DNA from: a virus
Lineage: Duplodnaviria > Heunggongvirae > Uroviricota > Caudoviricetes
DNA length: 31,484 nucleotides
Strand: one strand, 5' to 3'
Virus record (IMG/VR): IMGVR_UViG_3300029517_000011
The translations under genes were made by a program, and so were the position numbers. This document shows, piece by piece, positions 246-13,581 of this stretch. Positions within the stretch are counted from its first letter, which is position 1. Each line of letters starts with the position of its first letter. A model generated the notes under the pieces. The model saw only the letters and a list, made by a program, of their open reading frames with translations, was not told where the DNA came from and did not search any database.

Positions 246-653
246 TTATTTTATTGATTTATTTTTACGCGCTTTAAGCATTTCTTCGAAGAGTTTGTTG
301 AAGTTTTCTACTCTTGCGCGCATTTCAGACAGCAAGGCTTCCTGCTCGGAAGATGGAAGAGCATCGAATAATTCGATCAATTCTTTGTGGTTGGGAGTTA
401 GCTCTGTTTCCACATGAAGTTCTTGTGCAGGCACTGGTGCCTTGTCTTCGTCACCAAACATTAGCCATGTAGGTGAGCACTTCAGAGCATCCGCTAAAGC
501 AAACAATCGTTTTCCGACTGGCTGGGTTTCGTCTCTTTCCCATTGTGAAATTGTGACGTGAGCAACTCCAGCGAGGCGCGCGGCTTCTCGTTGTGTTAAG
601 CGTAATTCTTTTCGTCGCGCCAGAACTCGCTGGCCCAGGGTTCTTGTATCCAT
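246..653 (-). CDS. dicA: Phage repressor, DicA-like XRE-family HTH protein (135 aa)
   Basis: 135-aa ORF with an N-terminal HTH (LRLTQREAARLAGVAHVTISQWERDETQP) and a C-terminal segment (CSPTWLMFGDEDK...NFNKLFEEMLKARK) that I recall as characteristic of E. coli Qin DicA. Divergent from a small cro-like gene, with palindromes on both flanks. Confidence 0.8.
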   Translation of the reverse strand: MDTRTLGQRVLARRKELRLTQREAARLAGVAHVTISQWERDETQPVGKRLFALADALKCSPTWLMFGDEDKAPVPAQELHVETELTPNHKELIELFDALPSSEQEALLSEMRARVENFNKLFEEMLKARKNKSIK

Positions 654-662
654 AGTTAGGTA

Positions 663-720
663 ATTCTAATTTTTCTTGACTTAGGTATCCCGCGCACAAT
701 AATGTTAGAAAAGTCTAACA
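663..720. promoter_or_regulatory. Divergent promoter/operator region between the repressor and cro-like genes
   Basis: Plus strand: TTGACT (676-681), 16-17 bp spacer, AATAAT/ATAATG (698-704), overlapped by palindrome TGTTAGA-N4-TCTAACA (703-720). Minus strand: TAGAAT -10-like hexamer (663-668) 9 nt before the repressor ATG with no SD, suggesting a near-leaderless repressor mRNA. Confidence 0.5.
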
Positions 721-734
721 AGAGGGGGGCTTTG

Positions 735-962
735 ATGCTTAAAGTTGACGCAATTACTTTTTTTGGCAGCAAAACAAAGCTTGCCAATGCCGCAGGAGTG
801 AGGCTGGCAAGTGTTGCTGCTTGGGGGATACTGGTTCCTGAAGGTCGCGCGATGCGTCTACAGGAGGCATCTGGCGGGGAGCTTCAGTATGATCCCAAAG
901 TTTATGATGAATATCGTAAGACGAAGCGGGCGGGGCGGTTGAACAATGAAAATCACTCCTGA
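735..962 (+). CDS. dicC: Cro-like small regulator, DicC-like (76 aa)
   Basis: ORF track frame 702-962; I place the start at ATG 735 because the predicted transcript start lies near 710 and AGAGGGGGG precedes 735. 76-aa product (MLKVDAITFFGSKTKLANAAGVRLASV...) matches DicC in length, position and, as far as I recall, sequence. Confidence 0.7.
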   Translation: MLKVDAITFFGSKTKLANAAGVRLASVAAWGILVPEGRAMRLQEASGGELQYDPKVYDEYRKTKRAGRLNNENHS

Positions 963-1467
963 ACAGGCTCGTGAGGCTCTGGATGCCTGGATATGTCGAC
1001 CAGGAATGACACAGGAGCAGGCGACGATATTAATCACTGAAGCATTCTGGGCTTTGAAAGAGCGCCCGAACATCGATGTTCAGCGTGTCACAGATGAAGG
1101 TGGCGCGGTTGATCAGCGAGCGCTTGGTGTTAATCGAGTGAAGATATTCGAACGCTGGAAGGCTATCGACACCAGGGATAAGCGTGAAAAGTTCACGGCG
1201 CTAGTGCCTGCGATTATGGAGGCTATCCGGATTAGTGATTTCAGGTTGTATCGTGAAATTACTGACGGAAAAAGCATCACGTGCATGATCGCCGGGTTAA
1301 ACAAAGAATATGGCGATGTGGTGGAGTCCGGACTGCTTTTTGCTGATCCTGCCGTAGTGGATCGTGAAACTGACGAACTTATAGAAAAAGCAATTGCTTT
1401 CAAGCTTGCGTATCGACAGCAATACCAACAAAAAGCTGGATGGAATTATGAGCCTTCTTTTTGCTGA
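946..1467 (+). CDS. Hypothetical early-region protein (173 aa), in the position of cII/YdaT-type regulators
   Basis: ORF track 946-1467; its start overlaps the end of the cro-like gene and its end overlaps the replication gene start. Function is inferred from position only. Confidence 0.6.
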   Translation: MKITPEQAREALDAWICRPGMTQEQATILITEAFWALKERPNIDVQRVTDEGGAVDQRALGVNRVKIFERWKAIDTRDKREKFTALVPAIMEAIRISDFRLYREITDGKSITCMIAGLNKEYGDVVESGLLFADPAVVDRETDELIEKAIAFKLAYRQQYQQKAGWNYEPSFC

Positions 1468-2413
1468 ACGCCCACTGGTTATAAACACGCAGCTGGCAAT
1501 GAAAATTGGCTTAAACGAAGCCATTGTTTTGCAACAACTGCACTACTGGTTGAGAGATACCAACTCCGGCATGGAATGTGATGGTGTTCGCTGGATTTAT
1601 AACACAACGGAACAATGGCTGGAACAGTTCCCATTCTGGTCAGAGTCAACGTTAAAGCGCGCGTTTGCAAGTCTGAAAACGCTGGGGCTTTTGCGTTGTG
1701 AAAAGCTCAATAAATCAAAGCGCGATATGACCAATTTCTACACGATCAACTATGGGAGCGAGCTTTTAGATGGTGGCAAATTGAGCGAATCCATCGGTTC
1801 AAAATGCGCCGCTCCATCAGGTCAAAATGACACGATGGAAGAGGTCAAAATGAAACGCTCCATTGGTTCAAAACGACCCAATGTCATCGGGGCAAAATGG
1901 CCTGATGATCTTACAGAGAATACAACAGAGATTACTACAGAGAATAAAAACACTTTTCGTCCGGAAGCTTCGCAACCGGACCCGCAGACGACTGAACAGG
2001 ATTCTTTAACCCGGAACTCCGACGCGGTTGTGTTTAGTGCGAAAAAACGCCAGTGGGGTAGCAGGGAGGATTTGGCGTGTGCGCAGTGGATCTGGGGGCG
2101 GATCGTGGGTCTCTACGAACAGGCAGCCAGTGATGATGGCGAGATCATGCGACCAAAAGAGCCTAACTGGACTGCCTGGGCCAATGACGTGCGCACAATG
2201 CGGATGCTGGATGGCAGAAGCCACAGACAAATTTGCGAAATGTTTGGTCGGGTTCAGCGAGATCCATTCTGGGTAAAAAACATCATGAGCCCGTCAAAGC
2301 TCCGCGAAAAATGGGACGAACTGGTCATCCGCCTGGGACGTTCACCTGTACAGCGTTGTGTTAATCATATTTCTGAACCGGATACAGAAATTCCGCCTGG
2401 TTTCAGAGGATAA
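1448..2413 (+). CDS. Phage replication initiation protein (O-like; iterons lie inside the gene)
   Basis: ORF track frame 1394-2413; I prefer ATG 1448 (MSLLFAERPLVINTQLAMKIGLNEAIVLQQLHYWL...), which gives an N-terminal HTH-like domain. Five 23-bp direct repeats sit mid-gene as in lambda O. The C-terminal half resembles primosomal/DnaT-like replication proteins from memory. Confidence 0.6.
   Translation: MSLLFAERPLVINTQLAMKIGLNEAIVLQQLHYWLRDTNSGMECDGVRWIYNTTEQWLEQFPFWSESTLKRAFASLKTLGLLRCEKLNKSKRDMTNFYTINYGSELLDGGKLSESIGSKCAAPSGQNDTMEEVKMKRSIGSKRPNVIGAKWPDDLTENTTEITTENKNTFRPEASQPDPQTTEQDSLTRNSDAVVFSAKKRQWGSREDLACAQWIWGRIVGLYEQAASDDGEIMRPKEPNWTAWANDVRTMRMLDGRSHRQICEMFGRVQRDPFWVKNIMSPSKLREKWDELVIRLGRSPVQRCVNHISEPDTEIPPGFRG
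1791..1950. repeat. Candidate origin of replication: five tandem 23-bp iterons (1791-1905) followed by an A-rich segment (1906-1950)
   Basis: Units start at 1791, 1814, 1837, 1860 and 1883, with consensus about CCATNGGTTCAAAATG. Exact 23-bp periodicity (TCAAAA at 1799, 1822, 1845, 1868, 1891). Followed by TACAGAGAATA-type A-rich repeats. Confidence 0.7.
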
Positions 2414-2453
2414 GTGTTGATTTCAGGTCATGAGGTAATTTTAAGGGGGACTT

Positions 2454-2876
2454 GTGGCAAAAGTTTTTACACAAGAAGAGCGGGAAAAAATTAAATGGCA
2501 GGTGGTGGAACTCGTGCGCCAGAGCGGCCGTGAGACGTTACGGCAACTGGAAGCTAAAACAGGTGCGACTAGATATCTGATGAGCGTTCTTGCCAGAGAG
2601 CTGGTAGCCAGTGGCGATGTATACAACTCCGGCTACGGGTTATTCCCCTCTGAACAGGCGCGTAAGGACTGGCAAAACGCCCGCAAAAAACTCTCGAGGG
2701 CAAAGGTGAAGAAACCTGCTGTGGTTGATCCGGACCTTATCTGGTCATCACCTGACGGAGAAATACGTCGCTACGACAGTCGCCTAAACATAATCTGTCG
2801 CGAGTGCCGGAAGAGCGAAGTTATGCAGCGCATACTGGCTTTCTATCAGGGTAATTTTCAGGACGTGGCGCAGTGA
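2454..2876 (+). CDS. Hypothetical protein (140 aa)
   Basis: GTG start at 2454 preceded by SD TAAGGGGGA. Stop overlaps the next gene's start (GTGA at 2873-2876), suggesting translational coupling. Confidence 0.6.
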   Translation: MAKVFTQEEREKIKWQVVELVRQSGRETLRQLEAKTGATRYLMSVLARELVASGDVYNSGYGLFPSEQARKDWQNARKKLSRAKVKKPAVVDPDLIWSSPDGEIRRYDSRLNIICRECRKSEVMQRILAFYQGNFQDVAQ

Positions 2877-3229
2877 GTGCACCGGCAACCATTCTTGATA
2901 TGTGCTGTGGCAGCCGCATGTTCTGGTTCGATAAGTCTGACAAACGGGCGATATTCAGCGATATCAGAAAAGAAGGATACACATTACGCAATGGGAGACG
3001 CTTGATTATCAGCCCTGACATTATCGCAGATTTTCGTGCATTATCATTTGCAGACGCATCTTTTTCGATGGTTGTATTAGACCCTCCGCATCTTGAGCGT
3101 GTTGGTGATAACGCCTGGATGGGAAAGAAATATGGACGGCTGAATAAAGATGCCTGGCGTGATGATTTGCGACAGAGATTTAAAGAAGCTTTTCGGGTGT
3201 TGAGGCCGCACGGCGTTCTGATTTTTTAA
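2873..3229 (+). CDS. SAM-dependent DNA methyltransferase-like protein, probably C-terminally truncated or interrupted by an in-frame TAA
   Basis: Motif I-like LDMCCGSRMF near the N-terminus and DPPH (motif IV-like of N6/N4 amino-methyltransferases) at about residue 70. ORF ends at TAA 3227-3229, but the same frame stays open for 29 more codons (WNETQIPVSQILALTDRKPVICQRTGKKR) to TAA 3317-3319. Confidence 0.5.
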   Translation: MSAPATILDMCCGSRMFWFDKSDKRAIFSDIRKEGYTLRNGRRLIISPDIIADFRALSFADASFSMVVLDPPHLERVGDNAWMGKKYGRLNKDAWRDDLRQRFKEAFRVLRPHGVLIF

Positions 3230-3491
3230 TGGAATGAAACGCAAATACCGGTAAGCCAGATTCTGGCACTGACAGATAGAAAGCCTGTTATCTGTCAACG
3301 AACAGGGAAAAAACGATAAAACCCACTGGATTATTTTTATGAAAGAGGCATCCAGTGAGTAGATTCGTAAGGTTACAGATACGTATATCTGAATAATTAA
3401 ATTCAGTTCTGTAAATAAAACTTAATCCTTAACCGGATGGATTTCTGCACCCTCAGAACATCAGGAGGCCGCCCGAAAGGGCGGTAGTGAA

Positions 3492-3602
3492 ATGCGAAAG
3501 TTCAAAATTATTATTGAAACGGGAATAGCTGGTGGAGATTTTGAGGATGTATTCGAAGTGGACGATGACGCAACACCTGATGAAATTCATGACGGAGCAT
3601 AA
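3492..3602 (+). CDS. Small acidic hypothetical protein (36 aa); frame remains open for 23 codons beyond the TAA
   Basis: ATG 3492 follows a GC hairpin (3468-3485, GAAA loop) and GGAGG at 3463-3467. Product MRKFKIIIETGIAGGDFEDVFEVDDDATPDEIHDGA. Below the size cut-off of the ORF track. Confidence 0.3.
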   Translation: MRKFKIIIETGIAGGDFEDVFEVDDDATPDEIHDGA

Positions 3603-3666
3603 GAAATTTTCTTTAACTACTGCAATTACTCATACCACGAAATAAAAGACGATGAGGAAGAACAAA

Positions 3667-3777
3667 GTGGCTGATTTTTGTTCAGCTAAATATAACATCA
3701 GTTTTGAAGAGCGGGATGAACTATTAATGGACTATGGTGAATTACGCGGTGGAAGTGCTGCTGATGTCGAATCCTAG
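3667..3777 (+). CDS. Small hypothetical protein (about 37 aa); same frame reopens after TAG 3775-3777 for 21 codons
   Basis: SD GAGGAAG at 3655-3661 then GTG 3667 (alternative ATG 3652). Acidic, protein-like product (...YNISFEERDELLMDYGELRGGSAADVES). Confidence 0.25.
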   Translation: MADFCSAKYNISFEERDELLMDYGELRGGSAADVES

Positions 3778-3839
3778 CGTGATGACTATGAAGCGGGAAA
3801 AACTCCGGTCGAAGCATATTGTGATGAGTGGGGCGATGA

Positions 3840-4094
3840 ATGAGCGAGATTAATTATCAGGAAGGGCATGAAACGGCGGGGCAAGCAAAACCAGTGGCAT
3901 GGCGATATCGCTACGTGAAAAAAGCGTTACGGACTTTCAGGGGAAGTAGTGGTCTGGTGACTGGAAATATGTACCGAAAAAAGAGGATTGTAACGACAGG
4001 CCGAACTATCAAATTCAGGCCTTATTCACTGCCTCACCAGTCCCGGTTACATCAGAAGAACTGGTTAAAGCTGTGCACTTTTATGAACAACTAA
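3840..4094 (+). pseudogene. Possible frameshifted or degraded small gene
   Basis: ORF-track ORF 3840-4094 starts plausibly (MSEINYQEGHETAGQ...), but its 3' half looks non-protein-like while the -1 frame reads a protein-like ...VPVTSEELVKAVHFYEQLKRENPPTSGN. Confidence 0.3.
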
Positions 4095-4380
4095 AACGCG
4101 AAAATCCACCAACATCCGGCAACTAGATTAATGGATTAACTATGTCGGTTAAACGACCAGCCAACTGAAAAAGCGGAAACCTGATTACAGGTTGCCAGAT
4201 AAGGCAATGAGCTACCTGGCGCGGAACGGACTGATAAGTATGGGGAATGTTTTACGATGAACCTTTAGACTAAAGAGTTTGTAACGCTATGTAAGTGATT
4301 TTTTCTGGTTTAGATATTTATATGTCCGGCCAAATTGAGGTGTGTTTAAATGTAATTGCACATTGATTGTAGGAGGAATA

Positions 4381-4560
4381 ATGAAAAACGCATTGCAGTT
4401 TTTGTTTGTTGCGTTCTGGTTGTTCGCATCATGTATGCCCATCATCTTCACAGCAAGGTATATGGAAAAAGTTGATGTTTTGATATTAATATTTGGATAT
4501 ATAAATGCCCTTTTTTTAGGGGTGTTCATGGCGGTCATGTGCATTGAATACTGGCGGTAA
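4381..4560 (+). CDS. Small hydrophobic membrane protein (59 aa, two predicted TM segments)
   Basis: ORF track frame 4342-4560; strong SD AGGAGG then ATG 4381 (MKNALQFLFVAFWLFASCMPIIFTARYMEKVDVLILIFGYINALFLGVFMAVMCIEYWR). AT-rich upstream region. Confidence 0.55.
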   Translation: MKNALQFLFVAFWLFASCMPIIFTARYMEKVDVLILIFGYINALFLGVFMAVMCIEYWR

Positions 4561-4708
4561 ATACAGCGAACTCCATTGGTTTAGTTGGATATTTACTGTG
4601 CTGGACAAAAACGGTTTGCGGGGAAATCTTAGTTAAGTAGAATGACTGCGGGTGCTTGAGGCTATCTGCCTCGGGCATGGACACCAACGGCAGATAGAGA
4701 AAAGCCCC

Positions 4709-6584
4709 AGTTAACATTACGCGTCCTGCAAGACGCTTAACATTAATCTGAGGCCAATTTCATGCTAGACACATGTAGGTTAGCCTCTTACGTGCCGAAA
4801 GGCACGGAGAAGCAGGCTATTGTTAACACCAAGCTGTAATGTCCCCTTTGAACCATTCTAAAATGTCCCCAGACAATTCTCTGGGGGATTTTTCATGACC
4901 AAAGAAACTGTTACGATGAGTCATAAGGAACTCCACCGACTTCAGATTATTCAGGAGTCAATTAATCGACATATTACTCAGGAACAAGCTGCGGCACGCA
5001 TTGGCATTTCTATTCGGCAGGTTAAACGTCTGGTGCAACGGTATAGAAATGAAGGGCCTTCTGGTCTGGTTTCCCACCGACGTGGAAAGCGTCCTAATAA
5101 TTCCTTTTCTACTGAATTCAGAGCAACAGTAATTTCACTCCTCAAAGGCCGTTACGCTGATTTTGGACCTACGTTTGCGTGCGAAAAATTGCGCGAGATA
5201 CACGGTTTATCTTTATCCGTTGAAACTCTCAGAAAGTGGATGATAGAAGAGGGGTTATGGCGTGAACGCCGTCGTAAAATTGCCCGTATATATCAACGCC
5301 GCATGCGACGACCATCTTACGGTGAACTGATCCAGATTGATGGCTCACCTCATGACTGGTTTGAAAATCGAGGCCCCAGATGTACACTGATCGTTTTCAT
5401 TGATGATGCCACCAGTGCGTTGATGGCGTTGCGTTTTGTGCCTGCTGAAACAACCCGGGCTTACATGGAAACCCTCCGGGGTTACCTTAATGATCATGGC
5501 GTACCGCTCGCTCTCTACTCTGATAGACACAGTATATTCAGGGTAAATAACCCAGAGCGGGAAGGTGAGCTGACCCAGTTCACTCGTGCGATAAAGACAC
5601 TGGGCATCGAGCCAATCCATGCCAACAGCCCGCAGGCAAAAGGGCGGGTAGAGCGCGCCAATCAGACACTACAGGACAGGCTGGTCAAAGAAATGCGGCT
5701 TCAGAATATCAGTGATATTGAAACAGCAAATGCATGGTTGCCGACCTTTATTGAAGCCTATAACAACCGGTTCGCTACGTCGCCTCGTACTACTGATAAT
5801 GCTCATCTTGATGTGCACCATTCTGAAGAGGAACTGGGTTATATCTTCAGCCTACAGGCGAAGCGCGTTCTGTCTAAAAATCTCACTTTCCAGTACAAAA
5901 GCAGTGCGTTTCAGGTACGCAGTGAGGGCCGGGGATATCGACTTAGGCATTCGGTTGTTACTGTATGCGAGAACTTTGACGGTGAAATTAACGTTCTGTA
6001 TGACGGGAAAGCGCTGGGCTGGGAAAAGTATGTTGATGGCCCGGAGCCTATACCACTGGATGATGAAAAGAGTGTCCATGAACGAGTGGATAATGCCCGT
6101 ATTGATTTACGCTCAAAATACTATGTTAAACCTAAAGCTGACCATCCCTGGCTTACGCGCCGAACGCAAAGTCATCAGCAAGTTAAGCCCCCGAAGTTAC
6201 CTAAAAAGAAGCCTGATCCCGATAAAAAAGATTGAAACCAAGATCGATTCGGTTGAGTGCATATCCATTCATAGGGTAGATTCTTAAGTCGCGTTTCTGG
6301 TGTTCATTTTCGGGTGGTTTGTTACTTGTTTTACCGGGGATATGCCAGAAACGCGCTGAGTCAGTCTGGGCGGTGCGCGTAATGAGGCGTTATGGTAAAT
6401 AGCCTATGCTAATGTCCGCTAAGAGCAAGAAGCGGAAGTTGGCAGTTTTGTGGACTGTCCCCACAAAAGTGACTACAGAAATAGTTGCAATTCATAATTG
6501 ATCATGGGTTGTCAGTTAAACTCGTGGCGATTTAAATAGACTAATTGGGAGTGCGTCCATTACTTATATCTTGTAATGTTAACT
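4709..6584 (+). mobile_element. Insertion sequence with a single rve-type DDE transposase; ends not resolved (4709 and 6584 are only a provisional 12-bp inverted match)
   Basis: Single transposase gene 4895-6235 with no second IS gene, interrupting the phage nin-like region. AGTTAACATTAC (4709-4720) is the reverse complement of 6573-6584. No convincing longer terminal inverted repeat found by eye. Confidence 0.3.
4895..6235 (+). CDS. IS transposase, HTH N-terminus plus rve integrase-core DDE domain (446 aa); IS481/ISNCY-like architecture
   Basis: ORF track 4895-6235. N-terminal HTH (ITQEQAAARIGISIRQVKRLV). Catalytic-core-like segments LIQIDGSPHDW, ALYSDRHSIF and ANSPQAKGRVERANQTL fit D, D, E spacing of retroviral-integrase-type transposases. 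SD GGGGGA sits inside a hairpin (4867-4886) before the ATG. Confidence 0.85.
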   Translation: MTKETVTMSHKELHRLQIIQESINRHITQEQAAARIGISIRQVKRLVQRYRNEGPSGLVSHRRGKRPNNSFSTEFRATVISLLKGRYADFGPTFACEKLREIHGLSLSVETLRKWMIEEGLWRERRRKIARIYQRRMRRPSYGELIQIDGSPHDWFENRGPRCTLIVFIDDATSALMALRFVPAETTRAYMETLRGYLNDHGVPLALYSDRHSIFRVNNPEREGELTQFTRAIKTLGIEPIHANSPQAKGRVERANQTLQDRLVKEMRLQNISDIETANAWLPTFIEAYNNRFATSPRTTDNAHLDVHHSEEELGYIFSLQAKRVLSKNLTFQYKSSAFQVRSEGRGYRLRHSVVTVCENFDGEINVLYDGKALGWEKYVDGPEPIPLDDEKSVHERVDNARIDLRSKYYVKPKADHPWLTRRTQSHQQVKPPKLPKKKPDPDKKD

Positions 6585-6630
6585 ATCAGAAATGATACAA
6601 AGATAATATGTCTTTAAAGAAAAGGCTGAT

Positions 6631-6657
6631 GGCGAAAAGTGGCCCGATGAGGGCCAC
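6631..6657 (-). terminator. Intrinsic terminator downstream of flxA
   Basis: On the minus strand: stem GTGGCCC / GGGCCAC with a 5-nt loop followed by a U-run (complement of GGCGAAAA at 6631-6638). Confidence 0.55.
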
Positions 6658-6671
6658 AATACGGCTGTCAC

Positions 6672-7004
6672 TTAGACGTAAATATCAATGGTGCCAGCGG
6701 TATTTGTATCGTCTTTTTTCTCTTCTTTTTTATCAGGCTGAACTGTCGCGTCTTCATTCTTTTTCTCTGCCTGCTGCCTTAACAACTGCTCCAGTTGAGC
6801 CCAGAGGCTTTCAATTTGCTTCTGTACCAATGCAGCCATTTCTTTTTTCTGCTGTGTCGTCATCCCCTCTTCCGATGAGATTTTCCCAAGCTTTTCAGTC
6901 AGCACCTGAATTTGTCTTGTGATTTTGGCTATTTCTGATGTTCCTTCCGGGGCGGAGTTGTTTGAAATAACGGTTGAGGTATTTCCCTGAATTGTGACAG
7001 ACAT
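6672..7004 (-). CDS. flxA: FlxA-like protein (110 aa)
   Basis: ORF track 6672-7004. N-terminus MSVTIQGNTSTVISNNSA and 110-aa length match my recollection of E. coli Qin FlxA. Preceded by SD AAAAGGAGAAA and a sigma-28 consensus promoter. Confidence 0.7.
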   Translation of the reverse strand: MSVTIQGNTSTVISNNSAPEGTSEIAKITRQIQVLTEKLGKISSEEGMTTQQKKEMAALVQKQIESLWAQLEQLLRQQAEKKNEDATVQPDKKEEKKDDTNTAGTIDIYV

Positions 7005-7027
7005 AGATTTCTCCTTTTAAAAAAGCA

Positions 7028-7054
7028 CTATCGGCATGAACAAAAAAATCTTTA
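7028..7054 (-). promoter_or_regulatory. Sigma-28 (FliA) type promoter for flxA: TAAAGATT-N11-GCCGATAG
   Basis: Minus-strand sequence TAAAGATTTTTTTGTTCATGCCGATAG matches the FliA consensus TAAAGTTT-N11-GCCGATAA at 7/8 and 7/8 positions with the canonical 11-nt spacer, about 25 nt upstream of the flxA ATG. Confidence 0.7.
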
Positions 7055-7206
7055 ATCGTATTTCTTGTGTCATTAATTGTTTGATGTTCAGATTGTTTTC
7101 CTCGCGGGCTGGCGCGCCTCAGAAAGTAAAGCTTGTTGACAGGGGTAAACGTTCGGCAATAATTTTCTGCCGCATGCGGGTGTTGCATAAAACGTGTTAC
7201 GTTCCT

Positions 7207-7512
7207 TTATCGACAGGTCAGGTCACCGCTCACCCGCCGACGAGAAAGCAACACTGACATGCTAAAGCAAAAAATAGATGAATAAGTTGAGTTGTGCATA
7301 TGTAGCCTGACCGTCACAAAGTATATGGTGTCTGTACCAGTAAGATGATGGCCGGACTCTTTAAAAACGAGCTGACCTGCACAATACAGGATGGACTTAG
7401 CAATGGCTGCTCCTGGCACAAAGCGGACAGTGATCACCGTTCTTACGACTACTTTCTGACTTCCTTCGTGACTTGCCCTAAGCATGTTGTAGTGCGATAC
7501 TTGTAATGACAT
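7207..7512 (-). CDS. Hypothetical 101-aa ORF (possibly YdfV-like by position); may be non-coding
   Basis: ORF track 7207-7512 between flxA and relB, same strand as flxA. Composition is not convincingly protein-like and it overlaps the relBE promoter/operator. Confidence 0.25.
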   Translation of the reverse strand: MSLQVSHYNMLRASHEGSQKVVVRTVITVRFVPGAAIAKSILYCAGQLVFKESGHHLTGTDTIYFVTVRLHMHNSTYSSIFCFSMSVLLSRRRVSGDLTCR

Positions 7513-7525
7513 TTGTAATTACAAG
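7473..7525 (+). promoter_or_regulatory. relBE promoter with operator palindrome (relO-like)
   Basis: TTGCCC (7473-7478), 17-bp spacer, GATACT (7496-7501), overlapped by inverted repeat CTTGTAAT-N10-ATTACAAG (7500-7525). SD AAGAGGTG precedes relB ATG 7537. Confidence 0.55.
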
Positions 7526-7536
7526 AGGTGTAAGAC

Positions 7537-7776
7537 ATGGGTAGCATTAACCTGCGTATTGACGATGAACTTAAAGCGCGTTCTTACGCCGCGCTTGAAA
7601 AAATGGGTGTAACTCCTTCTGAAGCGCTTCGTCTCATGCTCGAGTATATCGCTGACAATGAACGCTTGCCGTTCAAACAGACACTCCTGAGTGATGAAGA
7701 TGCTGAACTTGTGGAGATAGTGAAAGAACGGCTTCGTAATCCTAAGCCAGTACGTGTGACGCTGGATGAACTCTGA
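7537..7776 (+). CDS. relB: RelB antitoxin (79 aa)
   Basis: ORF track 7537-7776. MGSINLRIDDELKARSYA...KPVRVTLDEL matches E. coli RelB as I recall it. Stop overlaps the relE start (TGATG). Confidence 0.9.
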   Translation: MGSINLRIDDELKARSYAALEKMGVTPSEALRLMLEYIADNERLPFKQTLLSDEDAELVEIVKERLRNPKPVRVTLDEL

Positions 7777-8063
7777 TGGCGTATTTTCTGGATTTTGACG
7801 AGCGGGCACTAAAGGAATGGCGAAAGCTGGGCTCGACGGTACGTGAACAGTTGAAAAAGAAGCTGGTTGAAGTACTTGAGTCACCCCGGATTGAAGCAAA
7901 CAAGCTCCGTGGTATGCCTGATTGTTACAAGATTAAGCTCCGGTCTTCAGGCTATCGCCTTGTATACCAGGTTATAGACGAGAAAGTTGTCGTTTTCGTG
8001 ATTTCTGTTGGGAAAAGAGAACGCTCGGAAGTATATAGCGAGGCGGTCAAACGCATTCTCTGA
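7776..8063 (+). CDS. relE: RelE mRNA-interferase toxin (95 aa)
   Basis: ORF track 7776-8063. MAYFLDFDERALKEWRKLG...; RelE/ParE-family size and position immediately after relB. Confidence 0.9.
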   Translation: MAYFLDFDERALKEWRKLGSTVREQLKKKLVEVLESPRIEANKLRGMPDCYKIKLRSSGYRLVYQVIDEKVVVFVISVGKRERSEVYSEAVKRIL

Positions 8064-8134
8064 ACCAAAGCATGACATCTCTGTTTCGCACCGAAGGTGA
8101 CACTTCTGCTTTGCGTTGACAGGAGAAGCAGGCT

Positions 8135-8290
8135 ATGAAGCAGCAAAAGGCGATGTTAATCGCCCTGATCGTCATCTGTTTAACCGTCATAGTGACGGCA
8201 CTGGTAACGAGGAAAGACCTCTGCGAGGTACGAATCCGAACCGGCCAGACGGAGGTCGCTGTCTTCACAGCTTACGAACCTGAGGAGTAA
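8135..8290 (+). CDS. hokD: Hok-family small membrane toxin, HokD/RelF-like (51 aa)
   Basis: ATG 8135 to TAA 8288-8290, translated by hand: MKQQKAMLIALIVICLTVIVTALVTRKDLCEVRIRTGQTEVAVFTAYEPEE. Below the ORF-track size cut-off. Hok-family hydrophobic N-terminus with the conserved Cys. Confidence 0.85.
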   Translation: MKQQKAMLIALIVICLTVIVTALVTRKDLCEVRIRTGQTEVAVFTAYEPEE

Positions 8291-8358
8291 GAGACCAGGC
8301 GGGGGAGAAATCCCTCGCCACCTCTGATGTGTCAGGCATCCTCAACGCACCCGCACTT

Positions 8359-8385
8359 AACCCGCTTCGGCGGGTTTTGTTTTTT
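8359..8385 (+). terminator. Intrinsic terminator after relBE-hokD
   Basis: Stem AACCCGC / GCGGGTT with TTCG loop followed by TTGTTTTTT. Confidence 0.7.
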
Positions 8386-8457
8386 CCTGGCATTCTGGTT
8401 TACAATTCGCACGCCAGCCTGAACAACTGGCACCTGCTGCGCCAGCAGAGACAACCG

Positions 8458-8736
8458 ATGGCGCACGATACCAAATTACACAATTCTGATGATTCTGCCG
8501 TCTTTGCCAGCAGGCACGGGCGGCGTTCCCGCACTTTCAAATCTGACTGGTTCCAGCATGACCCATGCACTGAAGAACAGGCCGAGTGGCTAATTCAGTG
8601 CTACCGCAGACACGGATACGAGATTAAGAAAGCCCTCAGCCTCGATTATCGTCACTGGATAATCTCCGTCAGGCTTCCTTACTCTGAACGCCCACCGCGT
8701 CCGTCTCGCACATTCCAGCAGCGTATCTGGAGGTAA
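8458..8736 (+). CDS. Hypothetical protein (92 aa), Rem-like by synteny with Qin (relB-relE-hokD-rem)
   Basis: ORF track frame 8329-8736; I start it at ATG 8458 because the 5' extension overlaps the terminator at 8359-8385. Stop TAA 8734-8736 abuts the next gene's GTG. Confidence 0.5.
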   Translation: MAHDTKLHNSDDSAVFASRHGRRSRTFKSDWFQHDPCTEEQAEWLIQCYRRHGYEIKKALSLDYRHWIISVRLPYSERPPRPSRTFQQRIWR

Positions 8737-8737
8737 C

Positions 8738-9793
8738 GTGCGGGTATTACTTCGACCTGTTCTGGTACCGGAACTCGGGCTGGTGGTCCTTAAGCCGGGC
8801 CGTGAATCCATGCAGGTATTTCATAATCCCCGGGTGCTGGTGGAGCCGGAACCGAAAAGCATGCGCGGTCTGCCGTCAGGAGCTGTTCCTGCCGTGCGCC
8901 AGCCGCTCGCGGAAGATAAATCATTACTGCCATTTTTCAGCGATGAGCGGGTGATTCGTGCTGCTGGCGGCGCTGGCGCATTGTCTGACTGGCTGTTACG
9001 CCATGTTAAATCCTGCCAGTGGCCTCATGGTGACTACCACCACAGTGAAACCGTCATACATCGTTACGGTACCGGCGCGATGGTATTGTGCTGGCACTGT
9101 GATAATCAGTTACGCGACCAGACTTCAGAATCACTCGGGCAACTTGCTCAACAAAACCTGACATCCTGGATGATTGACGTCATCCGCCACGCAATAAACG
9201 GTACACAGGAGCGGGAGTTATCGCTGGCTGAATTATCCTGGTGGGCGGTCTGCAATCAGGTAGCGGACGTATTGCCGGAGGCAGTATTACGTCGTTCTCT
9301 GGGATTGCGTGCGGAAAAAATCCGCTCGGTGTACCGCGAAAGCGACATCGTACCGGGAGAGCAGACCGCCACCAGCATACTGAAGCAGCGCACAAAAAAT
9401 CTTGCGCCGCTGCCTCACGCCCACCAGCAAAACCCGCCACAGGAAAAGACGGTGGTCAGCATTGCCGTTGATCCGGAGTCACCGGCTCAGTATCTCCAGC
9501 GCCAGAAACCACAACGGGAAGAGATGCCTGTATACACGCGCTGGGTAAAAACGCAGAAATGCATGACGTGCGGTAATCAGGCAGATGATCCGCATCACAT
9601 CATTGGTCATGGACTGGGAGGGATGGGAACAAAGGCTGATGATTTGTTTGTTATTCCGCTGTGCCGCAAATGTCATAACGAACTGCACGCCGGGGTAAAA
9701 GATTTTGAAGAAAAACACGGCAGCCAGCTGTTGTTGCTGATTCGTTTTTTAATGCACGCGAGAAATTCGGGCGTCCTGAAGTGGAAAGCATAA
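8738..9793 (+). CDS. DUF968-type protein (YdfU-like, 351 aa) with C-terminal Cys/His HNH-like motifs
   Basis: GTG 8738 preceded by GGAGG. C-terminus CMTCGNQADDPHHIIGH...CRKCHNELH resembles a zinc-finger/HNH-like motif. Size and position match Qin ydfU from memory. Confidence 0.65.
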   Translation: MRVLLRPVLVPELGLVVLKPGRESMQVFHNPRVLVEPEPKSMRGLPSGAVPAVRQPLAEDKSLLPFFSDERVIRAAGGAGALSDWLLRHVKSCQWPHGDYHHSETVIHRYGTGAMVLCWHCDNQLRDQTSESLGQLAQQNLTSWMIDVIRHAINGTQERELSLAELSWWAVCNQVADVLPEAVLRRSLGLRAEKIRSVYRESDIVPGEQTATSILKQRTKNLAPLPHAHQQNPPQEKTVVSIAVDPESPAQYLQRQKPQREEMPVYTRWVKTQKCMTCGNQADDPHHIIGHGLGGMGTKADDLFVIPLCRKCHNELHAGVKDFEEKHGSQLLLLIRFLMHARNSGVLKWKA

Positions 9794-10171
9794 ATGACAG
9801 AATGCATAGAGTTTGTTTTGCCTTACCCGCCGACGGTGAACACCTACTGGCGCCGTCGTGGTAGTACATATTTTGTATCAAAAGCTGGTGAGCGTTATCG
9901 CCATGATGTGGAGCTTATTGTTCGCCAGCAGCGACTGAAATTAAATCTGTCCGGTAGGTTGGCAATCAGGATTATTGCAGAGCCACCGGATAAGCGCCGC
10001 CGCGACCTGGACAATATCCTGAAGGCACCACTGGATGCGCTGACACATGCAGGACTGCTTATCGACGATGAGCAGTTTGACGAAATCAATATAGTGCGCG
10101 GTTTGCCTGTTCCTGGTGGGCGACTGGGCGTGAATATTTTCGTAATAAGAGGTAGTAATGATGGTGCGTGA
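9794..10171 (+). CDS. rusA: Holliday-junction resolvase RusA (125 aa)
   Basis: ORF track 9794-10171. PYPPTVNTYW...DKRRRDLDNILKAPLDALTHAGLLIDDEQ shows the RusA pattern (acidic DxD catalytic region) and typical lambdoid nin-region position just before Q. Confidence 0.85.
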   Translation: MTECIEFVLPYPPTVNTYWRRRGSTYFVSKAGERYRHDVELIVRQQRLKLNLSGRLAIRIIAEPPDKRRRDLDNILKAPLDALTHAGLLIDDEQFDEINIVRGLPVPGGRLGVNIFVIRGSNDGA

Positions 10172-10529
10172 TATTCAGATGGTTCTTGAGCGGTGGGGGG
10201 CATGGGCTGCGAGTGATAGCTCTGGGGTAGACTATTCACCTATAGCAGCTGGTTTTAAGGGGCTTATGCCGCAGATAAGTAAAACACGAATTTCTTGTAC
10301 AGACGATGACGCTCTTATCATTGAGAGCTGCCTTGCTTTACTAAAAAAGAAAAAACCGTACGAACATTCTCTGATTGTGGCTCATTACCTATACGGCATC
10401 TCGAAACGGAAGATTGCAAAGGCACGCAAAAAAGATGAGAAATTGATACGGATAGAGATCCAGATGGCAGAGGGCTTTATCGATGGCTGTCTCTCAATGC
10501 TTGATGTTCGTCTCGAGATGGAATTGTGA
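10158..10529 (+). CDS. Late-gene antiterminator Q, short Q family (123 aa)
   Basis: ORF track 10158-10529. N-terminal IQMVLERWGAWAA motif typical of the roughly 125-aa phage antitermination-Q family; positioned between rusA and the lysis region. Confidence 0.7.
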   Translation: MMVRDIQMVLERWGAWAASDSSGVDYSPIAAGFKGLMPQISKTRISCTDDDALIIESCLALLKKKKPYEHSLIVAHYLYGISKRKIAKARKKDEKLIRIEIQMAEGFIDGCLSMLDVRLEMEL

Positions 10530-10545
10530 ACCTCTTGAATATTCT

Positions 10546-10573
10546 AAACGGCCTAAGGGCCGTTTTATTCTTC
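10546..10573. terminator. Convergent hairpin terminator shared by Q (plus) and the inverted cassette (minus)
   Basis: Perfect 8-bp stem AAACGGCC / GGCCGTTT with TAAG loop at 10546-10565, followed on the plus strand by TATTCTTC. Lies 17 nt after the Q stop and directly after the stop of minus-strand gene 10565-10993. Confidence 0.6.
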
Positions 10574-10993
10574 TTTAGTAACTTCAATAGGTAAAACTTC
10601 TACATTCTTACCAATGTTAACAATCTTTCTAACAGTTTCTTCCCGATCAGCAATAAGCTCAGCTTTAAATTTCTCGCTTAGATGAGGGCTTTTCAGTTGC
10701 TCATCAATACCTTTTAAATCTCTCTCAAGGCGATTTCTTAGGGCGGCTTCGGCTGGAGACTCAAGTCCATGTCGATTGATAACATACAACATAATGTAGG
10801 TTAGCATTGCTGACACTAATGGGGCGAGGGCATACAAAAAAGCTCTCCATTCACTATTAGGGTCAGGCGCCAATAGTGGTACCAATGTAGTTAGAACTGC
10901 GCCAATCCCGCCTGTTGTTAGACCAGAATTACTACTTAAAATGCTTTTTTTATCACCGCTCATTATTTGACTGCCTGTGCGCGGTTGCATCAT
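10565..10993 (-). CDS. Cassette gene 3: membrane protein (about 142 aa, two predicted TM helices, charged coiled C-terminus)
   Basis: ORF track 10565-10996; start among clustered ATG/TTG codons at 10990-10996. Hydrophobic stretches GIGAVLTTLVPLLA and FLYALAPLVSAMLTYIMLYVI. Overlaps the end of cassette gene 2. Confidence 0.6.
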   Translation of the reverse strand: MMQPRTGSQIMSGDKKSILSSNSGLTTGGIGAVLTTLVPLLAPDPNSEWRAFLYALAPLVSAMLTYIMLYVINRHGLESPAEAALRNRLERDLKGIDEQLKSPHLSEKFKAELIADREETVRKIVNIGKNVEVLPIEVTKEE

Positions 10994-11216
10994 CAATTAG
11001 CTCAACGATCTTCTTTCCATCTTTAGCATCTAAGTGGATAGTAATCGTTTTTTCAAGCATGCGTTCAGCACTGTAAAACCTTAGTTCTACGATTTTTGTA
11101 GGAAAAATTTTACGCCACAACAACGCGGAACCAGCATAAACAAAGCGATAGAAGGTCGGGAGACTTACAAGCACCCCCAACCAAAAAACGATTTGTAAAA
11201 GCTGTTGCTGAATCAT
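10953..11216 (-). CDS. Cassette gene 2: small membrane protein (87 aa, one N-terminal TM helix)
   Basis: ORF track 10953-11216. LLQIVFWLGVLVSLPTFYRFVYAG hydrophobic segment. Starts 15 nt after the stop of cassette gene 1. Confidence 0.6.
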   Translation of the reverse strand: MIQQQLLQIVFWLGVLVSLPTFYRFVYAGSALLWRKIFPTKIVELRFYSAERMLEKTITIHLDAKDGKKIVELIDDATAHRQSNNER

Positions 11217-11231
11217 TAGTTTCTACCAAAG

Positions 11232-12113
11232 CTAGATCAATTTTTTCCCTTGAATCACGCGATGACGAAGTACTTTCTTGATAACATACTTTTCTGTTTG
11301 TCCTCGTGCGGAAGTTGTACGTGTTGTTTCTAGAAGCACAGAAAACATATCTTCACTTGTGATCGTTCCCTCTGCTTGCCTTACTTTAGCTAAAAACTCA
11401 TAGTCTGTAAGTAGTACGGAGTGCTCATCTTGGTTGTAGTCCATCCTCCACCCCTTCTCACTATGAAAGTTAACTTGGGTAAATTTTACATTAACCTCTT
11501 TTTCTTCAACTGTTTTGGTCAAAAGCGTCCCTCTGGGAAGGGGTTTAATCTCTTCAGTTTGCTCTCCTTCAAGCTTGAGCAAAACTTTATCATTCTCATC
11601 TACAATTTTAAAAATGGGAGAGTCTTTACCATCTAAAGGAGCCTGAACAACAGAAATCAACGCATCCCGAATTGTTGGCTCAGTTACCAAGGTTGCAACT
11701 GCTGATGAGCATTCAATCTCACCATCTTCAAATTCAAGAACAGCCTTATCTGTTCCTGCTTTTTTGGTAATCGAAACAACTTTTTTTGAGCCTAATTGTC
11801 TTATTAACGATAAAGCGGTGGCATGAGCTGTTGCGCCCACAGTTCCAACAATCCCGATAGTTTGCAGAACGTCAATTGCATGCGGTAGGAGTTGCACTAC
11901 AGTATATGCAATACCCACAGATCCTTTCTGGATGGGGGCAGTGACTAAAATTTTTACAGATTTGTTGCCCTCATTTAACAAGCTATCAGCTTTATTAATA
12001 AGAGTTGTCATGGAAAGTATTGATTTACCAAGTGTTTCAGCGTCAATAGCATGCTTTGACAATTCTTTATCATTGGCGTCATAAAACACCTTAAAGGAAG
12101 TTGACTTCTCCAT
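11232..12113 (-). CDS. Cassette gene 1: soluble protein of unknown function (293 aa)
   Basis: ORF track 11232-12113. SD AAGGA 5 nt before ATG (minus-strand mRNA ...gcatagcAAGGAccgtcATG). No recognisable catalytic motif (no P-loop, HxD, etc.). Confidence 0.7.
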   Translation of the reverse strand: MEKSTSFKVFYDANDKELSKHAIDAETLGKSILSMTTLINKADSLLNEGNKSVKILVTAPIQKGSVGIAYTVVQLLPHAIDVLQTIGIVGTVGATAHATALSLIRQLGSKKVVSITKKAGTDKAVLEFEDGEIECSSAVATLVTEPTIRDALISVVQAPLDGKDSPIFKIVDENDKVLLKLEGEQTEEIKPLPRGTLLTKTVEEKEVNVKFTQVNFHSEKGWRMDYNQDEHSVLLTDYEFLAKVRQAEGTITSEDMFSVLLETTRTTSARGQTEKYVIKKVLRHRVIQGKKLI

Positions 12114-12371
12114 GACGGTCCTTGCTATGCCTCATTGATTAATGCATATCTTGTTGATGGCTAAATTTGTAGAGACTTAATTTACCTAGAAAAGAAGATA
12201 AAATCACTAACGCGGTCCGCATTTTCTTGTTTATTGTGTTAAGAGTGGTCACTTCGGCATACAGCTTAAAACCGCTGCCGTGCGTTTTTTTGTCGTTTAT
12301 CTCTGATAATTATGGTGAATGCGCTGGTGGAGGAGGTAAGGGTGATTTTTAACCAGGTGATTTTTGAATGC

Positions 12372-12400
12372 TTGCAACATTGATTTCGTAACGTTATTAT
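12372..12400 (+). promoter_or_regulatory. Sigma-70 promoter TTGCAA-N17-TATTAT immediately upstream of the tRNA cluster; candidate late promoter (PR-prime equivalent)
   Basis: TTGCAA at 12372-12377, 17-bp spacer, TATTAT at 12395-12400; first tRNA begins at 12410. Preceded by direct repeats GGTGATTTTT (12341-12350 and 12356-12365). Confidence 0.55.
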
Positions 12401-12409
12401 CCTGCGCCC

Positions 12410-12485
12410 GGCCCTTTAGCTCAGTGGTGAGAGCGAGCGACTCATAATCGCCAGGTCGCTGGTTCAAATCCAGCAAGGGCCACCA
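12410..12485 (+). tRNA. tRNA with anticodon CAU, ileX/ileZ-like (tRNA-Ile2 lysidine type, or Met)
   Basis: Hand-folded cloverleaf: acceptor GGCCCTT/AAGGGCC, D-stem GCTC/GAGC, anticodon loop CUCAUAA, T-loop TTCAAAT, encoded CCA. Close to E. coli ileX as I recall it. Confidence 0.8.
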
Positions 12486-12486
12486 A

Positions 12487-12563
12487 CCGCCACTAGCTCA
12501 TCAGGAAAGAGCGTCAACCCTTTAAGTTGAGTGTGCGAGGTTCGAGTCCCCGGTGGCGGTCCA
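12487..12563 (+). tRNA. Atypical tRNA: anticodon loop CCUUUAA (formal anticodon UUU, Lys-like) with C instead of U at position 33; C1-G72 acceptor pair
   Basis: Folds as a cloverleaf (acceptor CCGCCAC/GTGGCGG, D-stem GCTC/GAGC with GG in the loop, anticodon stem TCAAC/GTTGA, T-arm GGTTCGAGTCC, encoded CCA) but has a noncanonical position 33 and an A-C mismatch in the T-stem. Confidence 0.55.
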
Positions 12564-12565
12564 GT

Positions 12566-12641
<76 letters not shown>

Positions 12642-12644
12642 TAT

Positions 12645-12719
<75 letters not shown>

Positions 12720-12925
12720 GTTAGAGTCTTTCAGTCTGCGATGATGGGAAAGCCCGGAGTGACTGAAAGACGTTTGGGTTATGAATGAGCGTCTTTTTTG
12801 CAAAATTGCTGTGCAGGAATAACAACCTTCGGGCAGGCGATCATTCATAAGCACTCTGCTTTTATTCCGATTAACTGTGGGTGGTTTGTTGGATAGAGTG
12901 CTTTCCTGACTGTAGATCCAATTTC

Positions 12926-12950
12926 GCCCGCTTTTGCGGGCTTTTCTTTT
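12926..12950 (+). terminator. Intrinsic terminator between the tRNA cluster and the holin gene (candidate tR-prime-like Q-sensitive terminator)
   Basis: Perfect stem GCCCGC / GCGGGC with TTTT loop followed by TTTTCTTTT. Confidence 0.55.
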
Positions 12951-13010
12951 CAAATCCCTTTCATCTCTCAGTGTAAAACTACGCCATCCGTTATTTGCGG
13001 AGGTGAGGCT

Positions 13011-13226
13011 ATGAAATCCATGGACAAAATTTCAACTGGCATTGCCTACGGCACCTCCGCAGGCAGTGCTGGCTACTGGTTTTTACAGTGGCTTGATCAG
13101 GTCAGTCCGTCACAGTGGGCTGCGATTGGTGTGCTGGGGAGTCTGGTTCTGGGCTTCCTGACTTATCTGACAAATCTGTACTTCAAAATCAGAGAAGACA
13201 AGCGTAAGGCTGCGCGGGGAGAGTAA
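13011..13226 (+). CDS. Holin, phage-21 S-type (pinholin-like) with dual start motif (71/68 aa)
   Basis: ORF track 13011-13226. [28 protein letters not shown]... with Met1 and Met4 (antiholin/holin dual start), SD GGAGGTGAGG, two TM segments and a charged C-terminus. Confidence 0.85.
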
Positions 13227-13230
13227 TTTA

Positions 13231-13581
13231 ATGACTCAAAACTATGAACTGGTTGTTAAGGGAGTCCGCAATTTTGAGAATAAAGTTGCGGTAACTTTAG
13301 CCTTACGGAACAAAGAACGCTTTGACGGTGAAATTTTTGACCTGGACATCACCATGGACCGTGTTGAAGGTGCTGCGCTGGAGTTTTATGAGGCAGCAGC
13401 CAGAAGGAGAATCAGACAGGTATTTCTGGATGTTGCTGCCAGGTTATGTGAATGGGATGAGCCGTCGCCAGAAAAACGCCCCATAATTTTTGAGGCGCAG
13501 AATGTGTGGGTAACCTACAAAGGAAAGCTACCGGGAAGAATTACTTGTTCTCTGAAGACTCCTCCGGAATCGCAACCTTAA
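13231..13581 (+). CDS. Hypothetical protein (116 aa) inserted between holin and endolysin
   Basis: ORF track 13231-13581. SD GGAGAG 8 nt upstream of ATG. No TM segments; not a canonical lysis gene. Confidence 0.6.
   Translation: MTQNYELVVKGVRNFENKVAVTLALRNKERFDGEIFDLDITMDRVEGAALEFYEAAARRRIRQVFLDVAARLCEWDEPSPEKRPIIFEAQNVWVTYKGKLPGRITCSLKTPPESQP

Follow-up and report, generated by a model that had tools for sequence, protein, structure and literature searches.

The stretch of DNA analyzed here, 31,484 nt long (IMG/VR virus record IMGVR_UViG_3300029517_000011; hereafter the window), includes a 913-bp region (positions 7473-8385) which comprises the genes relB, relE and hokD (relF). The initial annotation had described it as a complete three-gene toxin-antitoxin (TA) operon carried as a prophage moron. 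The open reading frames (ORFs) of 79, 95 and 51 amino acids were found exactly where they had been placed, and the TGA stop of relB (7774-7776) overlaps the ATG of relE (7776-7778) by 1 nt. When compared to their counterparts from Escherichia coli K-12 MG1655, RelB, RelE and HokD are each 100% identical, as anticipated. Pfam scores are of 112 bits for RelB, 51 bits for RelE (ParE_toxin) and 82.9 bits for HokD (HOK_GEF); the NCBIfam models retrieved are the RelB equivalog NF008412 (133 bits, cut-off 96) and RelE_StbE TIGR02385 (54.7 bits). RelB aligns along residues 1-79 of 79 with chain A of PDB 4FXE, a crystal structure of RelB2E2 (E 2.6e-46), whereas RelE matches chain D of the same entry end to end (E 6e-57) and equals, over 95/95 residues, the RelE of PDB 4V7K, whose structure was solved on the ribosome. 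A RelB-family antitoxin gene is hence located upstream of, and overlapping, the gene of a toxin of RelE fold with intact active-site residues: K52, K54, R61, R81 and Y87, which we take to be the catalytic ones, were all read directly in the translation, and the inactivating mutations considered in the initial annotation are not present. RelE toxicity and its neutralisation by RelB have been established for the K-12 proteins, which are identical to those of the window (PMC3598666, PMC2812701). The Qin relBEF layout, located between flxA and the DUF968-rusA-Q genes, had been recognized correctly, as comparison with the K-12 and prophage annotations indicates. The DNA of K-12 Qin is 99.8% identical to window positions 6051-8384, and at least 80% of the 913-bp region is present in 1,164 of the 5,426 complete E. 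coli genomes. By these comparisons, the TA locus is the already-known relBEF of E. coli K-12, and the TA genes as such, being the K-12 paradigm itself, bring no novelty. As for their origin, the evidence presented below makes it highly probable that relBEF, a classical E. coli transcription unit, is also a product of transposition, generated when a transposon carrying relBE landed on the start of a prophage hok gene.

It has been shown that relB, relE and relF/hokD are co-transcribed from the relBE promoter in K-12 (PMC3598666). The initial annotation had located a promoter upstream of relB. The best hexamers available (TTGCCC-17-GATACT) agree with the consensus at only 8 of 12 positions, and the generic sigma-70 scan therefore missed the relBE promoter. 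Its placement consequently relies on the published footprint of the operator relO, which covers -10 to +17 and makes the promoter fall at this point; substitutions in the -10 box within relO abolish promoter activity (PMC2812701). The autoregulatory operator which had been predicted at 7500-7525 is real, but not in the form of one palindrome with an N10 spacer. The palindrome CTTGTAAT-N10-ATTACAAG does occur at these positions, as a single copy in the window, and it is not matched in any of 100 shuffles, even when 2 mismatches are allowed. Nevertheless, relO consists of two abutting 12-bp half-sites, comprising four hexads [A/T]TGT[A/C]A and overlapping the promoter. The half-sites TTGTAATGACAT and TTGTAATTACAA match base for base those mapped by mutagenesis and footprinting; each of them binds one RelB dimer, and no spacing between both is tolerated (PMC2812701). 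In K-12, the promoter is repressed at relO by RelB dimers and by RelB2E, with conditional cooperativity, RelE being of aid when the RelE:RelB ratio is low (PMC2812701), and either an excess of RelE or the Lon-dependent loss of RelB derepresses it; RelB turnover frees RelE. At the other end of the transcript, the intrinsic terminator predicted in the initial annotation was confirmed. It is the sole plus-strand call of the terminator scan, with a stem at 8359-8376 (7 pairs, 5 of them G-C) followed by TTGTTTTTT, and the hairpin folds with -14.6 kcal/mol.

The claim that the three genes form a complete TA unit does not stand in the case of hokD. It is a Hok-family toxin ORF, but an orphan one: neither a contiguous leader with its own promoter nor an overlapping mok or an antisense Sok is located at hokD. 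When the interval 7300-8600 was searched with the Rfam model of the Sok/hok leader (RF01794) at E values up to 10, no leader was found near hokD. The leader is located 3.3 kb upstream instead, at 4650-4821 (104 bits; gathering score 59), and ends where the ATG of hok would be expected. The roles of tac and of the fold-back inhibition element (fbi) in hok/sok mRNAs are well established. Here, the fbi sequence CCTCAACGCACCC is complementary to the tac sequence GGGTGCTTGAGG except for one bulged base, yet the two are not on one mRNA, but in different transcription units. Lacking mok, Sok and a promoter of its own, hokD does not constitute a functional hok/sok module.

Alignment with intact hok loci provides the missing connection between both parts. 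In phage PPompW (L003), segments 5849-5927, 5946-6016 and 6001-6265 of the intact hok locus align, in this order, with window positions 4631-4709, 4749-4820 and 8121-8384. The last two PPompW segments overlap by 16 bp because the window contains a perfect 15-bp direct repeat. Similarity to PPompW is of 82-94% in the left flank and of 99.6% in the right flank. The leader stretch 4650-4820 is colinear with the intact hok loci of both PPompW and E. coli ST648 and, on the side of hokD, homology to the phage loci (PPompW, 933W hokW and others) does not begin before window position 8121.

The segment that separates the two hok halves (4821-8121; 3,301 bp) is flanked by both perfect copies of the 15-bp repeat, GGAGAAGCAGGCTAT. 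Just inside are a left (IRL) and a right (IRR) inverted repeat, which match at 22 of 30 positions; IRR is the best inverted match of IRL in the whole window (the next best reaches 19) and it abuts the direct repeat. The segment also encodes a transposase that scores 465 bits with NCBIfam NF033594 (cut-off 250), contains Pfam helix-turn-helix domains and rve_3, and is identical at 445 of 446 residues to plasmid-borne copies; RefSeq labels it as an ISEsa1 family transposase. Since perfect 15-bp repeats, inverted repeats immediately inside them and a transposase gene coincide, 4821-8121 has the anatomy of a transposon, with the order IRL, transposase, flxA, ydfV, relBE promoter with relO, relB, relE and IRR. 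The remainder of hok was also searched for just after the transposase gene (6236-6672), where none was found; that remainder is hokD, at 8135. Regarding the IS1202 family, we found a DDE transposase of the IS1202/ISNCY type, imperfect terminal inverted repeats with 5'-TGT...ACA-3' ends, and a target-site duplication (TSD) accompanied by precise empty sites, the duplication being at variance with the absence of TSD published for ISEsa1. The insertion sequence (IS), which the initial annotation had treated as mere neighboring context, thus reads as the left end of the same mobile element. Taken together, these features make it very likely that 4821-8121 is an ISEsa1-type (IS1202-family) transposon inserted at the ribosome-binding site (RBS) and start codon of hok.

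The empty-site query for E. coli consisted of the window locus minus the insert and minus one copy of the repeat, and was compared with the 5,426 complete genomes. The restored, uninterrupted hok/sok locus is covered by at least 80% in 2,558 of them. In E. coli ST648 (L008), the 15-mer occurs only once at the empty site, the Sok/hok leader is complete (117 bits) and the gene for the identical HokD protein (WP_000813254.1) is uninterrupted. The prophage that contains this site is Qin-like, and the site is followed by the same hypothetical-DUF968-RusA-Q genes. What is absent from ST648 is the segment flanked by the two hok halves, and the terminator is present without relBE, which does not agree with the moron proposed in the initial annotation. 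When the left junction was probed in 30 sampled E. coli rows, all 24 uninterrupted hok loci among them stopped at query position 171, which corresponds to window position 4820, the last base of the repeat.

Closely related elements are inserted elsewhere. The 3,301-bp element is also present, with 99.2% identity, in an IncF plasmid from Enterobacter roggenkampii (L005), where it occupies an R1-type hok. Unlike that of the window (GGAGAAGCAGGCTAT), the perfect 15-bp duplication in this plasmid is GGAGAAGAAGGCCAT, and the restored empty site is found in the Enterobacter ludwigii plasmid CP123378 (100.0% over 500/500 nt). In the Phytobacter IncF plasmid NZ_AP018757 (L007), a 12,843-bp element (616-13458) is located at the hok start between perfect 15-bp copies of GGAGAAGTCAGCTAT. 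Its transposase is identical at 445/446 amino acids and its end is the same relO-relB-relE-IRR, but ncrYCBA (nickel resistance), chrBA (chromate resistance) and other genes replace flxA-ydfV. A 6,093-bp version was also found (L010 and L026 are relatives of about 6.1 kb). The IRLs of these four elements (L005, L007, L010 and L026) are identical to that of the window. The three larger ones, L007, L010 and L026, are located in plasmid hok loci downstream of psiB-psiA and share only the transposase and relBE-IRR arms. In plasmid L005, the ORF at 4013-4078, immediately to the left of the junction, carries the annotation DUF5431 family protein.

The outer 22 nt of IRR were also used for a survey, which retrieved 23 loci from species-representative genomes together with 76 IMG/VR contigs. 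In 80 of these 99 loci, IRR directly adjoins the start of a hok gene, and at least seven distinct Hok alleles are represented, from Escherichia, Shigella, Enterobacter, Klebsiella, Citrobacter, Kluyvera, Buttiauxella, Pantoea and Pseudocitrobacter. Where both ends are present, duplications are perfect in 32 of 35 loci, and element sizes are of 2.3, 3.3, 4.7 and 6.1 kb. The 15-mer of the window, HokD-type in both copies, shows 2 and 3 differences with respect to the plasmid alleles. The features of the window are compiled in Table 1.

Table 1. Features of the split hok/sok locus, the inserted element and the relB-relE-hokD region (coordinates of the window).
Feature	Position	Strand	Description
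5' half of resident phage hok/sok locus	4650-4820	+	hok mRNA leader: tac (4650-4661), Sok-complementary region, mok start
Truncated mok' ORF, 25 aa	4762-4839	+	Translation MLDTCRLASYVPKGTEKQAIVNTKL, then stop; crosses the junction and stops inside IRL
Left TSD copy, 15 bp	4806-4820	.	GGAGAAGCAGGCTAT; identical to 8122-8136
IRL	4821-4850	+	TGTTAACACCAAGCTG...; starts 5'-TGT as in the IS1202 family (PMC10132070)
ISEsa1-type (IS1202 family / ISNCY) DDE transposase, 446 aa	4895-6235	+	Apparently intact
Variable cargo segment (flxA and most of the ydfV ORF)	6441-7409	.	Replaced by other genes in related elements
flxA, 110 aa, cargo gene	6672-7004	-	Pfam FlxA 53.8 bits; K-12 annotation flxA
ydfV ORF, 101 aa, doubtful gene	7207-7512	-	No Pfam or NCBIfam match
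Conserved right-end module (relBE promoter, relO, relB, relE, IRR)	7410-8121	+	98.6% identical to L007 12747-13458 despite different cargo
Probable relBE promoter	7473-7501	+	-35 TTGCCC, 17-bp spacer, -10 GATACT; read from sequence
relO operator	7501-7524	.	Left half-site TTGTAATGACAT 7501-7512, right half-site TTGTAATTACAA 7513-7524
relB	7537-7776	+	79 aa; ribbon-helix-helix antitoxin and autorepressor; Pfam/NCBIfam above cut-off
relE	7776-8063	+	95 aa; ribosome-dependent mRNA endonuclease toxin
IRR	8092-8121	+	...CTTCTGCTTTGCGTTGACA / ...CTGCTTTGCGTTGACA; in the relE-hokD spacer; ends ACA-3'
Right TSD copy	8122-8136	.	GGAGAAGCAGGCTAT; supplies the hokD Shine-Dalgarno and the A and T of its ATG
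hokD (relF)	8135-8290	+	51-aa Hok-family membrane toxin; 3' half of the split hok locus
TACG motif at hokD Tyr47 (TAC)	8273-8276	+	TadA A-to-I (adenosine-to-inosine) editing site, Tyr to Cys
fbi element of hok mRNA	8340-8352	+	Now apart from its partner tac 4650-4661
Intrinsic terminator of hok mRNA, now ending the relB-relE-hokD transcript	8359-8385	+	Terminator scan and fold

Comparison of the elements delimits their conserved parts. Homology between the window and the 12.8-kb Phytobacter element breaks off at 6440 and restarts at 7410, the only shared modules being 4821-6440 and 7410-8121; relO is present in both L005 and L007. The start codon of ydfV is located inside relO, and its ORF straddles the module boundary at 7410. 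From this placement and the lack of any Pfam or NCBIfam match, the annotated ydfV is probably not a real gene. The 49 aa of the K-12 gene 'ydfW' (L001 4614-4763) are exactly those encoded by the 49 final codons of the ISEsa1-type transposase gene (window 6086-6235). Furthermore, K-12 Qin does not contain the sequence corresponding to window positions ~1226-6050, which include phage genes from 1226, the 5' half of hok, IRL and most of the transposase gene. The window therefore shows the complete element, and K-12 only a remnant: as judged from the alignment, K-12 Qin carries a copy of the transposon with its left end deleted, and ydfW is what is left of the transposase gene.

Taking these results together, the following course of events can be proposed. 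A 3,301-bp ISEsa1-type transposon would have inserted at the Shine-Dalgarno sequence and start codon of a resident hok gene and generated the 15-bp duplication. The hok promoter, tac, the Sok region and the start of mok would have remained to the left (4650-4820), while the right TSD copy would have rebuilt the RBS and ATG of hok, so that an orphan hok portion (ORF, fbi and terminator) would come to lie 58 bp beyond the relE stop. The transcript initiated at the relBE promoter would read through IRR into hokD and end at the hok terminator, and hokD, freed from Sok/mok control, would depend on the relBE promoter. As reconstructed from the junctions, the transposon brought in relBE and its promoter as its right end, and the phage's own hok/sok contributed its 3' half, consisting of hokD, fbi and the terminator; hokD would lack Sok and mok because the insertion split the hok locus. 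The relBE genes, a fixed right-end module, are probably the addiction module of the element itself, replacing the disabled hok/sok, and the transposase gene may profit from the hok promoter on its left.

Other explanations were considered. According to the reading of the initial annotation, relB-relE-hokD would be a unitary TA operon with its own promoter, operator and terminator, acquired as a moron, and the neighboring IS would be unrelated to it. Such a reading agrees with the co-transcription of the three genes in K-12, with the promoter/operator ahead of them and the terminator behind, and with the fact that near-identity to K-12 ends just past the terminator. However, the boundary between presence and absence is 4821-8121 and not 7473-8385, hokD and its terminator are found without relBE, as intact hok/sok, in the 2,558 E. 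coli genomes referred to above, and relBE moves together with the transposase gene and IRR into other, plasmid-borne hok alleles. To this must be added that hokD is devoid of Sok and mok, which define a hok/sok module. Contradicted by the empty sites, a three-gene moron is very improbable. Alternatively, a 1.6-kb ISEsa1 could have inserted alone beside a pre-existing flxA-ydfV-relBE-hokD array, the IRR-like sequence at 8092-8121 and the second 15-mer being coincidental. The ISfinder entry, with 1,609 bp and no target duplication, would fit this explanation, as would the end of Phytobacter homology at 6440, near 1,609 bp. Nevertheless, a candidate right end near the ISfinder boundary (~6429) was rejected, the best IRR-like match there reaching only 12/22, whereas the best inverted match of IRL in the window ends at 8121, abutting the repeat. 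Three elements of different sizes have perfect but differing duplications, each of them fitting its own hok allele, and precise empty sites exist; besides, no independent 1.6-kb copy at a non-hok site without relBE was found among the loci examined. A solitary ISEsa1 insertion is thus scarcely credible.

It could also be argued that the transposon is real, but that the prophage obtained it by homologous recombination with an occupied hok locus of a plasmid or phage, through the flanking hok halves. Flanking hok sequences are common to many replicons, the left flank of the window is less PPompW-like than the right one, and a contig of the IMG/VR set suggests that such recombination does happen: it carries a 3,300-bp element with mismatched flanks (left GGAGGGGCTATGATG, right GGAGAAGCAGGCTAT), as would result from recombination between copies in two different hok loci. 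On the other hand, both 15-mers of the window are of the HokD type and distinct from the plasmid alleles, ST648 offers, in the same prophage context, a locus with these flanks and no interruption, and the same junctions are found in many E. coli and viral contigs. We therefore consider acquisition by recombination unlikely, and retain direct insertion of the transposon into the prophage hok gene as the preferred explanation.

Some considerations weigh against the insertion hypothesis or limit its extent. The mobility of the element is deduced from comparative structure, and its inverted repeats are imperfect (22/30). That relBE would serve in addiction as a replacement of hok/sok, and that the transposase gene would make use of the hok promoter, is inferred. 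As ISEsa1 is described by ISfinder and by Harmer and Hall as a 1,609-bp element with no TSD, a shorter autonomous form may exist. Part of the spread between hok loci could have occurred by homologous recombination through the flanking hok halves. Finally, hokD of K-12 is regarded as an inactive locus (PMC5630033, PMC12214031).

The recurrence of these insertions leads us to a broader hypothesis, which we advance tentatively and regard as possible rather than probable: hok-targeting transposons could form a family so far unrecognised, in which relBE is the built-in right end and by which addiction modules are swapped. Their transposase would recognise the conserved translation-initiation region of hok on plasmids and prophages, and insertion would at once disable a type I system, install a type II system and put hok under the control of RelB, the transposase gene being perhaps located behind the strong hok promoter and its Sok-controlled leader. 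The catalogued ISEsa1 would then be only the left arm of such elements.

The transposon reading would explain the odd composition of relBEF, in which an orphan type I toxin comes after a type II pair, and would change the interpretation of two K-12 annotations, ydfW being a transposase remnant and ydfV probably no gene. ISEsa1 would be redefined as one arm of larger cargo transposons with a 15-bp duplication and a specific target, hok, which is the commonest addiction gene of plasmids and prophages in the Enterobacteriaceae. Genes for nickel and chromate resistance also appear to travel between IncF plasmids on the same elements. If targeting is true, these elements would represent a new case of a mobile element homing on another selfish module, and maybe a tool for site-specific insertion.

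Some additional observations were made in the IRR survey, at hokD and elsewhere in the window. In two IMG/VR contigs, IRR runs directly into the interior of hokD (CTGCGAGGTACGAAT), an arrangement suggestive of an adjacent deletion. Exact copies of the 22-nt IRR query were also found, with no hok beside them, in contigs of metagenome-assembled genomes labeled as Pseudomonadales, Anaerolineales or Azotimanducaceae (L020, L021, L023 and L029); contamination, chimeric assembly or the element in another context are possible explanations. A few surveyed loci are rearranged (L009, L013, L018 and L028). With respect to hokD, editing at Tyr47 has been reported in K-12 (PMC5630033), at a level of about 6% (PMC12214031), and RNA folding places the TACG motif of the window inside a predicted 9-nt hairpin loop. 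Pairing of IRR with the Shine-Dalgarno sequence of hokD was considered as a silencer and rejected: 6 bp can pair, but the fold is no better than that of shuffles (z = 0.32). Downstream of hokD, the leader search returned a sub-threshold match to isrK, a small RNA of Salmonella (Rfam; 27 bits against a gathering score of 50), at 8299-8380, on the hok 3' untranslated region and terminator; a terminator hairpin common to both is the probable reason. A cluster of four tRNA genes (Met-CAT, Lys-TTT, Thr-TGT and Gly-TCC) occupies 12410-12719, with the Q antiterminator gene on its upstream side and the lysis genes on its downstream side; in related prophages, different tRNA sets are found here (Ile/Arg, or Met/Lys/Arg).

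When compared to known systems, the locus shares with relBEF of K-12 Qin identical proteins, relO, gene overlap, 71-bp relE-hokD spacer and terminator. Both differ downstream, where K-12 has rem and no rusA, whereas the prophage of the window continues with a hypothetical gene, DUF968, rusA and Q. Near-identity to K-12 ends at 8384, at the end of the T-run of the hok terminator, and homology resumes at 8441 with 85% identity (gap 8385-8440 vs L001 6913-7336); from the alignment, this boundary is a mosaic joint at the terminator. With the hok/sok systems (parB of R1; hokW/mokW of phages), the window has in common the Hok toxin, the 3' fbi and terminator, and a leader with tac, mok and Sok region, but 3.3 kb separate the two halves of its locus, and neither an own promoter nor mok or Sok accompanies hokD.

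Compared to the IS1202 family, the element has the same transposase family, 5'-TGT...ACA-3' ends and imperfect inverted repeats of 24-30 bp. Published ISEsa1 has 1,609 bp, 15/22 inverted repeats and no detectable duplication, and for the no-duplication group to which it belongs there is no evidence of a conserved target sequence (Harmer & Hall 2023, PMC10132070). The unit described here, in contrast, spans 3.3-12.8 kb, generates a 15-bp duplication and always has relBE at its right end. Long duplications are known in the family (16-17 bp in the ISTde1 subgroup, 27-28 bp in the IS1202 subgroup), as are target-specific members and members with passenger genes (PMC10132070; Siguier et al. preprint 2022). 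Unlike the family members that target dif sites, window-type elements sit at the translation start of hok. The preprint by Siguier et al. (2022) lists five members with passenger genes (ISKpn21, ISKpn65, ISKpn63, ISShal2 and ISRel10), with no mention of ISEsa1, hok or relE. As quoted in a later paper, Ramisetty and Santhosh (2016, as cited in PMC6379469) stated that relBE integrated into, and shortened, an ancestral 'hokD' ORF, and that it was of plasmid origin. In the accessible literature, we found no account of the complete element, of the 15-bp duplication, of the invariable relBE end or of hok targeting, and the complete element is apparently an undescribed variant of an IS1202-family element.

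As phage morons do, the insert constitutes an accessory, non-essential block, with a promoter ahead and a terminator behind, between early and late regulatory genes; unlike them, it is bounded by inverted repeats and a TSD, encodes a transposase and borrows its terminator from the target. A parallel exists in the Tn3 family, in which some transposons reportedly have TA pairs beside the transposition module. There, as in the window, the type II TA pair is a conserved part of the transposon and not variable cargo. The transposase families are nevertheless unrelated, and the element of the window has no resolvase, carries its TA genes opposite the transposase gene, and has inserted into a target which is itself a TA locus.

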